A stretch of 64,000 nt of DNA from a plasmid: the NCBI RefSeq assembly GCF_988243305.1, contig NZ_OZ547139.1. One strand, written 5' to 3'. Position numbers: made by a program. This document shows, in pieces, positions 27,001 through 30,000 of this stretch. Positions within the stretch are counted from its first letter, which is position 1; each line of letters begins with the position of its first letter.

Positions 27001-30000
27001 GAACAGGGTCAGCACGATACCGGTAGCTTCTGCGGACAATTCCCCTTCGAACCAGTTACCGCTAACCGATACCGTGAAGCGCTCTGCGCTCAGTGGGTAC
27101 ATGAAGCCGCTACCGCAAGACAGTTCGACGAACTCCCAGGAACCGCCTTGATAATCGGCGCAGAGAGAACGTGCGTGGTTGTAGACACCGGCCTCACCTG
27201 TGAGATACCAGGCGCCGAACAGGCGTGGCAGAAAGGCCATGCGGCGGTTATTGGGGATAATGCGTGCAGTGATGGCGGGTTGATTCAGTTCAGTAGACAT
27301 TTTCTGTACTCCTGCGCCAGTCGGGGCGCTACCGTCGAAAGACCGGATTGCCTTTCGATGTGATTATTATACGTCTAATGAGCCATACCAATCAAGCAAA
27401 ATATTCCCGCCTACCTGAATATTTTCAGGCGGTAGAACTCTTTCCCCTGTCCATTTTTGGGGGCAGGATCACGCCTGCCCCCTTCTGATTCACATGATTA
27501 CTATGACTTTGTTTCAGCGTTAAAGTGTACGGCTGCGATCCTGACCAACGGGATCACCGCGCTTTCCTCATCGAGCACACGAAAATTTATCGCTTCCCCC
27601 AGGTGCATCAGGTTAGCGATAAAATCAACGATGATTTCGGAAACCGGGTGTCCGTCGCAGTCCTGCTCATTCAGGCGCGCAAACAGCGCCAGCGCCTTAG
27701 CGGCCTTGATTGCCCGCTCTTCGTTTTCTTCGTCCATACTGCCGAAACACCATTGCCCCTTTTCAATCAGGGCCAGCGTGTCGTAATAGGCTTCATTCTG
27801 GGACATGTTTTTTCCTCCTGCGCCAGTCGGGGCGCTACCGTGAAAGTTCGCTGCGTTACTGCATGAATTAGCCGTTAATCACCTTCGTGATGCACTCCAG
27901 CGCCTCAGACTCCTGCGGATAAAGTCGGCGTGCAGCTCCTTCACCAGACTGGATTTCTTCCAGCCGGATAAACTGCGCCGCCAGCGCCACGACTTTTTGC
28001 AGCGCCTCGGCATTGACCTCTATCTTTCGATCGCGGGCGGCATCTTCGCGCACCTGCTTTGCCAGGCTCCAGACGGTATCTTTTCCGACGCCATAACGGC
28101 TGTGTGAACTGCATTCCGCGATTTCTGCCAGAACGGCTTCGGCCTCATCGTCAGTGAGGTTCATATCACTGGTGCAGTCATGGACATCTTCAGCAGTCCA
28201 GATCAGAAGGCTGATCCGCTGCTGTGGTTCAAAACTATCGAGAAGCCTTGCGCAAATTTCATTTACGTTACCGTGCATTGTAAAACTCCTGCGCCAGTCG
28301 GGGCGCTGCCGCGAAAGACCGGATGCCTTTCGATGTGATTATTATACGTCTAATGAGCCATATCAATCAAGCGATTTTTCACGCTCATAGCTGCTACAGG
28401 CAACGCTGTAGCAGTTTGCATCCAGTTCTGAAGGCCAGTCGTCACGCCCGCAACCTGACAGCAGGCAGGCGCTGAGGTGCCCAGGGCGATAGTCGAGATG
28501 CTGGCATGAGGCGCAAAGGTCATCATCTGAGATTGAGCGGCCTGCACAGATAGGCGGCGCGCCATCAGTGGGAATTTCTCGAATATGCAGCGTTGTCACT
28601 TTTTTTACTCCTGCGCCAGTCGGGGCGCTGCCGGTTAGCGATGCAGGGGGCTGTCGCCCCCTGCGGCGGTTCAGTCCTTACCCTTATCCTTCATGACTTT
28701 AATCAGCCCGGTAATGGCTGTAATGAGGGCGGCCACGGCCGTGATAATCTGAGGGAGGTTATGGAGGATTTCAGAAGAGGTCATAATGCACCTGTAAGGC
28801 TGTTTAGGAAGGTACTGATTTGAATCAGTAAAAACATTATACGTCTAACGAGCCATATATGCAAGCAAAAAAACGCCCCTTGTAGGGGCGCTGTGATTAT
28901 TTTACATACTGCCAGACATGCGGCGGGATCTTATCCCAGATGCGTCCCGATGCCAGCTCTGCGCGGCGATGGTCGGCGGCAGCCTCAAAAGCCTCGGTGT
29001 CCTCCGGCGGCACCTGTCCACGATCCCGCATGGATTCGTACATTTTTTCCAGTGTGTCCGGGTTACGACTGCGCCGAAAACGGAGAAGGTAAAAACGCCT
29101 CCGTGCCTGATAAACTGTTTCCGCCATGTATCTGCGTCCTGAGCGCCTTGTTATTTCGCATAGTATTCACGTTTTGGTTGAATAAGTCTTCGACTATACG
29201 CCCCTTGCGGGGCGTAGCAGGCGGTCAGCCCCAGGTGCTGTAAAAATGGCTTTCGTTAGGATCGGTCTTATAAGCCTGTTCGTACTCGTCAATGCTGACA
29301 GACGGATGCTCATGGTTTTCACAGATGCGACGGGTCACGGGTTCGCCTTTAAAGTCGTTCAGTACCGGCTTTAACTCGCCAGACATTGCACTGTCTGCTT
29401 TCACCTGCTGCGCAGCGATGCGGCGCAGTACGGCGGTTTTCTTACCGCGCAGGGCGATCACCTGATAAAAACAGGTATTTGTCTGCTCATAACCCCAGCT
29501 GGAAACAAAAACATCACCAAGAGAAACGGAGCCGTTACGGAACTGAAGGGATTGAATAGCCATGTTTATTACTCCTGCGCCAGTCGGGGCGCTACCGCGA
29601 AAAGCCTCATTGCCTTTCGATGTAATTATTATGCGTCTAATGAGCCATATTAATCAAGCAATAAATACATGCCCGGCATGATTTTCTCAGGCCGGGGAAT
29701 ACTTCCTTTCCCTGTTTATATTTCAGGCCGCAAATGCGGCCTGCCGTCTGCATTACACGCGAGGGGGTAACATTCCGGGATAGTGACTGGCAACCAGATT
29801 ATTGATCTTCTCAACCAGCTCCGGGCGTTTAAACGTAATGTGCGCGCTGCCCTTTTTGTAATATCGCACGCTGAAGTAATCACACTCGAACACCTTACCG
29901 TTGAACTGGTTTTCACTGAAAAAGGCATCCAGTTTGGCACCGTCAGAAACACGGTAATCAGGCACGTTACGCCCGTCCAGCACGTAGAACGGCCGCGCCA

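Follow-up and report, generated by a model that had tools for sequence, protein, structure and literature searches.

The 64,000-nucleotide stretch of plasmid DNA analysed here (hereafter the window; RefSeq assembly GCF_988243305.1, contig NZ_OZ547139.1) comes from an IncL/M plasmid of the pCTX-M3/pOXA-48 type, and carries on its minus strand, from 27501 to 29563, a block of six short genes directly upstream of klcA, a KlcA/ArdB-type antirestriction gene. An earlier note, made from the sequence, had put the block forward as a set of candidate anti-defence genes. The locus is already known and its genes are real and conserved, while anti-defence as a blanket statement about them is wrong. The reading that we favour instead, and to which we give roughly even credence, is that these are mixed accessory establishment genes, co-expressed via a lineage-specific cassette, made soon after entry into a new cell and then repressed.

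The identity of the locus is clear. A 2.46-kb segment around the block matches 1293 PLSDB plasmids at 95–99.5% identity, nearly all of them conjugative IncL/M plasmids from Klebsiella, Enterobacter and Escherichia, with pNDM-HK and pNDM-OM among them. Using the pCTX-M3/pOXA-48 nomenclature (Table S1 of PMC12365149), the genes of the block in order of falling coordinates are orf27, rmoA, orf27.1, orf28, orf29 and orf30, followed by klcA; the 37-codon gene is probably orf27.1, as judged by its position in the pOXA-48 table. The earlier note's six minus-strand open reading frames (ORFs), with their boundaries, their lengths and the GTG start of orf28, were all confirmed. Each is present in roughly 1100–1300 PLSDB plasmids. 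As a reference for selection we used a Pantoea plasmid (L006) with the same gene order and diverged sequence (synonymous divergence, dS, about 0.8–1.5). The ratio of non-synonymous to synonymous divergence (dN/dS) against this plasmid was 0.13 for orf30, 0.22 for orf29, 0.04 for the 37-codon gene, 0.07 for rmoA and 0.09 for orf27, next to 0.08 for klcA and 0.09 for ssb, the gene for the plasmid's single-stranded-DNA-binding protein (SSB). For orf28 dS was saturated, with 67% amino-acid identity across the core of the protein. By these measures of sequence conservation, all six are true protein-coding genes rather than chance ORFs.

The six genes probably form three operons, orf27–rmoA, the 37-codon gene with orf28, and orf29–orf30. 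Co-transcription of rmoA with orf27 is probable, and an intrinsic terminator follows rmoA. The GC-rich hairpin that follows orf30 has its T run on the plus strand only and is thus a possible operon boundary. The stop codon of orf28 falls within the -35 box of the cassette that precedes orf29. The placement of the block directly upstream of a KlcA/ArdB-like gene, also claimed before, was borne out: the klcA product matches PDB entries 2KMG (KlcA, E 9e-25) and 2WJ9 (ArdB, 2e-10) as well as phrog_10132, ‘anti-restriction protein’ (1e-22), and klcA is the sole neighbour of the block with an assigned anti-defence role.

The cassette, read on the gene strand, begins with a TTGATT-N18-TATAAT promoter, continues with a leader that contains a 9-bp hairpin, and ends in a 25-nucleotide piece, GGTAGCGCCCCGACTGGCGCAGGAG. 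This piece combines a 5-bp GC hairpin with a Shine-Dalgarno sequence (AGGAG) and ends 5–9 nucleotides before the start codon. The earlier note had every gene of the block driven by a shared module, which does not hold in that form: within the block the full cassette precedes orf27 and orf29 only, with a further copy before klcA; orf30 and orf28 lack a promoter of their own and have the 25-nucleotide piece alone; the promoter part, with a different leader, is all that the 37-codon gene has; and rmoA has neither. The promoter before the 37-codon gene probably drives both that gene and orf28. The 25-nucleotide element occurs ten times in the window, between 26384 and 35916, always on the minus strand. 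It also helps to place gene starts: its position 7 nucleotides upstream supports the GTG start of orf28, and the copy at 30620–30644 indicates that the DUF4942 gene (orf26) really begins near 30612. Three copies are identical in the Pantoea plasmid despite saturated synonymous sites (dS >1), indicating strong constraint and suggesting that the element acts at the level of RNA or translation.

Other genes of the leading region, klcA and the ssb operon among them, carry the same cassette. A blastn search set for distant matches found it in IncL/M plasmids only, with 5–8 copies in each, so that a kinship with the repeats of other plasmid groups was discarded. Two further candidates were rejected: a known RNA family (Rfam gave nothing in 23000–37000) and a structured leader, the predicted folds being no better than those of shuffled sequences (z -1.4 and -0.4). 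The cassette promoters resemble ordinary sigma-70 sites that work on double-stranded DNA. As a separate observation, in the cassette of the ssb operon (orf32–ssb) the spacer/-10 region at 26443–26482 is repeated in inverted orientation (ATACGTCTAATGAG and CTCATCAGACGTAT, 93% complementary, 12 nucleotides apart). Since this cassette alone has such a hairpin, the ssb operon might be expressed from single-stranded DNA.

Table 1. Positions in the window of the block genes, klcA, the cassette and its parts, hairpins and nic
Feature	Position	Strand	Description
orf27	29225-29563	-	112 amino acids
rmoA	28897-29127	-	76 amino acids, isoelectric point 9.6
37-codon gene	28671-28784	-	37 amino acids, hydrophobic
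orf28	28363-28599	-	78 amino acids, GTG start, 7 Cys, net charge -7
orf29	27868-28278	-	136 amino acids, net charge -11
orf30	27501-27806	-	101 amino acids, net charge -10
klcA	26860-27300	-	146 amino acids, KlcA/ArdB-type antirestriction gene
Full cassette before orf27	29565-29660	-	repeat families and sequence reading
Full cassette before orf29	28278-28372	-	TTGATT-N18-TATAAT promoter plus leader
Full cassette before klcA	27303-27397	-	context
Promoter part only, different leader	28836-28870	-	TTGCAT-N-TATAAT; repeat families D3, D4
25-nt element without promoter, before orf30	27815-27839	-	copy of GGTAGCGCCCCGACTGGCGCAGGAG
25-nt element, orf28	28608-28632	-	identical or near-identical copy
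25-nt element, orf29	28286-28310	-	identical or near-identical copy
25-nt element, orf27	29572-29596	-	identical or near-identical copy
25-nt element, klcA	27309-27333	-	identical or near-identical copy
Intrinsic terminator after rmoA	28872-28892	-	9-bp GC-rich stem then T run
GC-rich 9-bp hairpin after orf30	27459-27482		T run on + strand only
oriT nic sequence ACATCTTG/T	23562-23570	+	match to published pCTX-M3 nic (PMC8125031)

The position of the block relative to the origin of transfer (oriT) was fixed by the nic sequence, known from pCTX-M3 (PMC8125031). Since nic lies on the plus strand, the plus strand is the one transferred and coordinates above 23570 form the leading region; the block genes, being on the minus strand, have the transferred strand as their template. 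This orientation is typical for early leading-region genes (PMC11541004). The block lies 3.9–6.0 kb from nic on the side that enters first, as about the 8th to 13th gene, and ssb, preceded by the same cassette, is some 1.5 kb away. The claim that the block neighbours klcA and ssb on first-transferred DNA therefore stands. The gene adjoining nic is orf35 (23716–24111), termed the first leading-region gene in PMC7440800. No long inverted repeats of the kind that make an Frpo-type single-strand promoter were found around the cassettes in 24000–31000, so transcription of the block from single-stranded DNA is unsupported here. As a side observation, nic lies within the longest nikA/mobA reading frame (23154–23717, minus strand) and within the RefSeq mobA annotation of relatives; the true nikA start is probably further downstream.

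Among the six products, Orf29 and Orf28 have the most telling relatives. Orf29 matches Pfam PF07128 (DUF1380) weakly (E 1.1e-4, 22.7 bits, positions 1–105 of 137), can be aligned over its full length with YubJ, YfeC and YfcB at 20–28% identity with conserved positions in common, and is labelled a DUF1380 family protein in RefSeq. It is helical; its model reached a predicted local distance difference test score (pLDDT) of 76 and rests on a shallow alignment, because the scan of genomes for DUF1380 returned just 14 loci. In the window orf29 lies 568 nucleotides upstream of klcA, with orf30 between them. DUF1380 genes stand directly downstream of KlcA-type genes in IncF (yubI–yubJ) and IncI (yfeB–yfeC) plasmids, an arrangement also present on a Pectobacterium plasmid and at 5 of the 14 genome loci, and a second DUF1380 paralogue, YfcB, follows a leading-region methylase. 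In IncI1 and F plasmids, operons with KlcA and methylase homologues are switched on in transconjugants that have just formed (PMC12672017), and those operons are the two DUF1380 locations in the IncI/IncF records that we examined. Both DUF1380 families are among the top or largest uncharacterised families enriched in leading regions (Samuel et al. 2024).

The family alignment of Orf28 has a core with four conserved cysteines, RSISDDDLCxxCxxLxYxPG..C..DW..DExGY..C, and presumably corresponds to a small zinc-binding module, as judged from the cysteine pattern. No Pfam or PDB match to it was found. An island on an IncHI1B/FIB plasmid has a homologue, flanked by a DUF932 gene on one side and an antirestriction gene on the other, and among 5426 complete E. 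coli genomes related DNA is present in 2347 (43%). In the one chromosome of sequence type 131 (ST131) that was inspected, this DNA again sits between the DUF932 and antirestriction genes, here of a CP4-type island, where it is unannotated and its frame is split. We note the locations of such Cys4 DNA at L032 3436–3776 (E. coli ST131 chromosome) and L013 4929–5183; it is usually unannotated. Orf28-related sequence also forms the N-terminal part of 114-residue proteins on phage-like contigs. A word-indexed protein search returned only close relatives of Orf27, Orf28 and Orf29, and comparison of their alignment profiles with PDB sequences gave nothing meaningful. Searches of the literature on DUF1380, yubJ and IncL/M leading-region or anti-defence genes found no functional study of orf27–orf30 or of DUF1380.

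The Hha-like character claimed for the 76-residue protein was confirmed by a match to Pfam HHA (PF05321) over the whole model (E 2.1e-15, model positions 1–57 of 57, residues 15–73 of the protein). RmoA, as the gene is named in the pOXA-48 Table S1, also matches YmoA (3e-13) and Hha (3e-11). Its scores fall below the NCBIfam cut-offs (58.2 bits against 90 for Hha, 41.6 against 101 for YdgT), which makes it a member of the family and not an Hha orthologue. The AADHR motif, containing the H-NS-binding aspartate that is D48 of Hha, is kept (‘aaadhrraelasg’ opposite ‘saadhrlaeltmn’), and PMC4519777 states that this residue of Hha matters for H-NS binding. From this likeness, RmoA would be expected to modulate H-NS silencing and not to block a nuclease-type defence. 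In a Raoultella plasmid (CP168294.1; L009 6309–6662) the alignment of rmoA covers just 28 of its 76 codons, and the genes around it are intact; rmoA is apparently disrupted, and thus dispensable, there. The window holds a second Hha-family paralogue in the tra region (14231–14443, plus strand; E 3e-8 to rmoA), adjoining an H-NS-like gene. It corresponds to Orf36.1 of pOXA-48, deletion of which cuts transfer threefold.

The 37-codon gene encodes a peptide with one predicted membrane helix (Kyte-Doolittle 19-residue maximum 2.17) and a basic C-terminal tail, KDKGKD. It matches phrog_3399 (E 1.6e-4). Of 1158 plasmids, 1147 encode the peptide with an identity of at least 99%, and comparison with the Pantoea plasmid gives 95% amino-acid and 86% nucleotide identity; nevertheless, most RefSeq records leave the gene unannotated. 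It is the most conserved gene of the block, and pNDM-HK has a 60-residue ORF annotated on the opposite strand instead. The peptide is built like the small, hydrophobic, single-helix toxins of type I toxin-antitoxin systems, and toxins of the Ldr/TisB type are likewise small single-helix peptides with a basic tail. It is not, however, the ‘novel type I toxin’ of pOXA-48, as that system, dqlB/agrB, lies between repA and trbC.

Orf27 belongs to a large family, with at least 3341 representative clusters (50% identity, E up to 0.001), for which neither Pfam nor NCBIfam has a model. About half of the clusters are two-domain proteins of about 195 residues, with a basic linker and an additional N-terminal domain of unknown kind (pattern ..GKA.KP...Y.F.S...R..). 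Members occur in 2822 plasmids of many types, among them IncI2 and IncX plasmids and those of Acinetobacter and Xanthomonas, and in Vibrio phages some 190 kb long. The spread of the family is far wider than leading regions; in IncI2, for instance, it adjoins replication and partition genes. The motif SSWGYEQTN..FYQV is nearly invariant. The Orf27 model (pLDDT 91.2) is all-beta, a barrel of the SH3/Tudor/BAH-like kind, and its relatives in AFDB are uncharacterised, some carrying the name YagA. A link of the family to GIY-YIG was considered and dropped: two AFDB relatives are so named, but the two-domain representatives that were inspected have a different N-terminal domain, and NCBIfam gave nothing. 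Against two related plasmids whose neighbouring genes are 97–100% identical, orf27 has a dN/dS of 0.66–0.94. We do not read this as fast evolution, since the changes come in unbroken stretches in which the most conserved motif is exchanged (SSWGYEQTNTCF for LFPAGVMSRQIPV in one instance), a pattern typically left by compensated frameshifts or errors of assembly; each of the two variants forms a cluster of one.

Orf30 was found in IncL/M plasmids only among the plasmids searched. It matches phrog_3963, a PHROG without assigned function, weakly (E 2e-5), and had no other family match in Pfam, NCBIfam and PDB searches. We propose that it is a lineage-specific acidic helical protein. It was also considered as a counterpart of YffA, whose gene comes after yubJ/yfeC, and rejected as there is no similarity.

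How far, then, does an anti-defence role extend? In Pfam, NCBIfam and PHROGs none of the six products matched a known anti-defence family, the match of klcA to ‘anti-restriction protein’ being the only one, and the models of Orf27 and Orf29, the two structures that were checked, resembled no known inhibitor. The earlier note called the genes uncharacterised, which holds for orf27, orf28, orf30 and the 37-residue peptide, for which searches of Pfam, NCBIfam, PADLOC and PDB sequences gave no match to a characterised family; rmoA belongs to the Hha/YmoA family and orf29 to DUF1380. Its description of the products as small and acidic fits Orf28, Orf29 and Orf30, and mildly so (about -0.1 charges per residue); RmoA is basic, the peptide is hydrophobic and Orf27 is near neutral. 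DNA mimics such as Ocr and ArdA have a far higher negative charge, and none of the six reaches the charge density of a DNA mimic.

The genetic evidence comes from pOXA-48. In transposon insertion sequencing (Tn-seq), the block genes were non-essential for maintenance and none was needed for transfer into E. coli MG1655 (PMC12365149), and in CRISPR interference (CRISPRi) experiments no block gene changed fitness when silenced in 13 clinical strains (PMC12361523). These screens used undefended or unchallenged hosts, and a lack of phenotype there is what one would expect of genes that matter only when a plasmid enters a host with defences. As judged from position, an anti-defence role is a reasonable hypothesis for three or four of the genes. 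The context is strongest for orf29 and orf28, relatives of which stand beside KlcA-type genes in unrelated elements, with orf30 included by operon membership; for these candidates, direct inhibition of host defence is plausibly the most likely role. Such a role is unlikely for the membrane peptide and does not fit rmoA. Nor is the idea new: Samuel et al. proposed it in general form, and here it is applied to a locus catalogued since the sequencing of pCTX-M3.

In the establishment reading that we favour, block gene expression would burst once the plasmid becomes double-stranded in the new cell and would later be shut down by a plasmid repressor, for which the essential regulators Orf20 (XRE-like) and KorC are candidates. 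The products would be accessory establishment proteins with different jobs. RmoA may join host H-NS and tune the silencing of new DNA; Orf29, and possibly Orf28, may act alongside KlcA; Orf27 would be a small beta-barrel that may bind either protein or nucleic acid; and the 37-residue peptide would reside in the membrane. KorC and Orf20 are essential in both pOXA-48 studies, and loss of Orf20 gives sick, filamenting transconjugants.

Several observations weigh against this scheme. The burst followed by repression is modelled on the IncI1 and F plasmids and on the IncW and IncN regulons. The DUF1380 gene of IncL/M plasmids lies upstream of klcA in a separate operon, unlike its counterparts in IncF and IncI. 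KlcA/ArdB cloned alone works in vivo, and thus has no strict need for a DUF1380 protein. Long Frpo-like hairpins were not found in the block; rmoA is broken in the Raoultella plasmid; and no block protein matched a known anti-defence family, nor did the Orf27 and Orf29 models have a functional fold match. Finally, the pOXA-48 authors report a KorC site only at the promoter of korC itself.

The reading closest to the earlier note, that all or most of the six are direct inhibitors, each of a different host defence system (restriction, CRISPR-Cas, BREX and so on), seems to us improbable. It accords with the leading-region position, the orientation with the transferred strand as template, the proximity of klcA and ssb, the small size of the products, the mild acidity of Orf28–Orf30 and the lack of a phenotype in undefended hosts, and anti-defence genes are over-represented among the first ~30 ORFs of leading regions (PMC11541004). 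Set against this are the well-supported identity of rmoA as something else, the membrane nature of the 37-residue peptide, the absence of sequence or fold likeness to known inhibitors, and the distribution of the orf27 family, far wider than leading regions as its place beside IncI2 replication and partition genes attests. The charge of the acidic products is also well below that of Ocr and ArdA. A narrower version, to which we give equally little weight, has Orf29 and the Cys4 protein Orf28, perhaps with Orf30, as dedicated KlcA/ArdB partners that widen its range, or as inhibitors of defences other than type I restriction. This would explain both the association of DUF1380 with klcA in IncF, IncI and IncL/M plasmids and the Orf28-like gene before the antirestriction gene in the CP4-type islands that were inspected. 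It is somewhat less unlikely, if still a minority view, that the block serves ‘stealth’, that is, control of cost or self-control of transfer and replication, with RmoA and the second Hha/H-NS pair silencing plasmid genes and the other products acting as regulators or adaptors. The Hha-like nature of RmoA, the second paralogue with its H-NS-like neighbour, and repression of the tra operon by the neighbouring orf35 (PMC8125031, PMC7440800) point this way, as do the mildly positive, non-significant log2 changes after transfer of insertions in orf27, orf28, klcA and orf31. However, CRISPRi silencing left fitness unchanged in all 13 clinical strains, and Orf27–Orf30 have no recognisable DNA-binding domain.

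Two alternatives remain. If the block acted with the plasmid SSB in processing the incoming DNA (strand protection, complementary synthesis or recircularisation), Orf27 would be a nucleic-acid-binding barrel, and in favour of this the SSB gene nearby carries the same cassette and a few members of the orf27 family are fused to GIY-YIG or methylase domains. We nevertheless think this very unlikely, given that deletions and insertions do not lower the transfer frequency and that most of the two-domain relatives inspected lack a GIY-YIG motif in the unknown N-terminal domain. Least credible of all, to the point of being nearly dismissed, is that the 37-residue peptide is a type I toxin and the remaining block neutral cargo. 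The Ldr/TisB-like single helix with its basic tail, the gene's own promoter with a structured leader, its extreme conservation, and the existence of another peptide toxin system (DqlB/agrB) elsewhere on pOXA-48 would suit a toxin. However, no promoter-like site for an antisense RNA was seen on the opposite (plus) strand in 27200–29800, in a simple consensus scan that is weak evidence, and the other five genes are under purifying selection and hence not neutral cargo. Moreover, orf27.1 and its neighbours tolerate transposon insertions and are non-essential in pOXA-48 Tn-seq, unlike the agrB antitoxin region (PMC12365149).

The surroundings of the block were taken from annotated relatives and from the window itself. 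On the oriT side the relatives have nikB/traI, nikA/mobA and oriT, then a divergent gene of 131 codons, followed by a minus-strand run leading up to the block with genes of 178 and 103 codons (the latter DUF5983), ssb, genes of 73 and 94 codons, and the antirestriction gene. Beyond the block come DUF4942 (orf26), a 59-codon gene, a DGQHR/DndB-like gene, a helix-turn-helix regulator, RadC/JAB and DUF3085 genes and, further on, nuc and parMR. Within the cassette-bearing region of the window we noted, all on the minus strand, the DUF4942 gene (methyltransferase-like, YdiA-type; 29753–30612), the DGQHR/DndB-like gene (31473–32756), the RadC/JAB gene (33131–33580) and the DUF3085 gene (33702–34064). 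The 26–36 kb stretch as a whole looks like a single leading-region island. Near the 5′ end of nikB/traI, 23026–23100 gave weak, sub-threshold Rfam matches on both strands to the microRNA family mir-5984. The family assignment is spurious; the matches point to a long palindrome at this position.

IncL/M plasmids, pOXA-48 foremost, are main carriers of carbapenem resistance in Enterobacterales, and little is understood of their establishment in clinical hosts with defences. Two families of the block recur elsewhere, DUF1380 with KlcA-type genes in IncF and IncI plasmids and the Cys4 family in the form of related DNA, which 43% of complete E. coli chromosomes contain. If the products of orf28–orf30 or of orf27 turn out to inhibit host defences, the anti-defence repertoire would gain new families and the host range of these plasmids would be easier to explain. 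If not, the block would still be a clean case of a standardised promoter and ribosome-site cassette that co-expresses establishment genes.

Compared with known systems, the locus is the same as that of pCTX-M3, pOXA-48 and pNDM-HK, with 95–99.5% DNA identity, the same order from orf26 (DUF4942) to klcA and no material difference; for these plasmids there are published gene names and screen results, and function is not described. The Hha/YmoA/RmoA family, of which plasmid-borne members are common, shares with the block protein the full HHA domain, the size and the AADHR motif, while RmoA of the block differs by its arginine-rich N-terminus and by its location downstream of orf27 and not with hns. 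The regulatory arrangement is similar to the CUP regulon of IncN (pKM101) and the ArdK regulon of IncW (R388), in which a repeated promoter precedes small leading-region genes, antirestriction genes included; for the IncL/M cassette itself, no relatives at the DNA level were detected beyond its own group. The neighbouring 59-codon gene is named ccgA1, after IncN nomenclature, in the pOXA-48 table.

The leading-region islands of Samuel et al. 2024 are alike in having the transferred strand as template and klcA and ssb as neighbours, and the DUF1380, DUF4942 and DUF5983 families listed there as leading-region-enriched are all three present in the IncL/M leading region. They differ in that the IncL/M block has no Frpo hairpins, with a sigma-70-like cassette repeated 5–8 times instead, and in that the block itself holds no tested anti-defence gene. 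In the klcA(yubI/yfeB)–DUF1380(yubJ/yfeC)–yffA operon of IncF and IncI1 plasmids, a KlcA/ArdB-type gene likewise adjoins DUF1380 in the leading region; however, the IncL/M order is reversed (orf29–orf30, then klcA) and split over two operons, Orf29 is about 26–28% identical to YubJ/YfeC, and Orf30 is unrelated to YffA. Finally, the CP4-type set DUF932–antirestriction–RadC–DUF987–YeeU/CbtA–DUF5983 has an orf28-like Cys4 gene just upstream of its antirestriction gene, and the IncL/M leading region likewise has KlcA, RadC/JAB and DUF5983, although in a different order and with other members.

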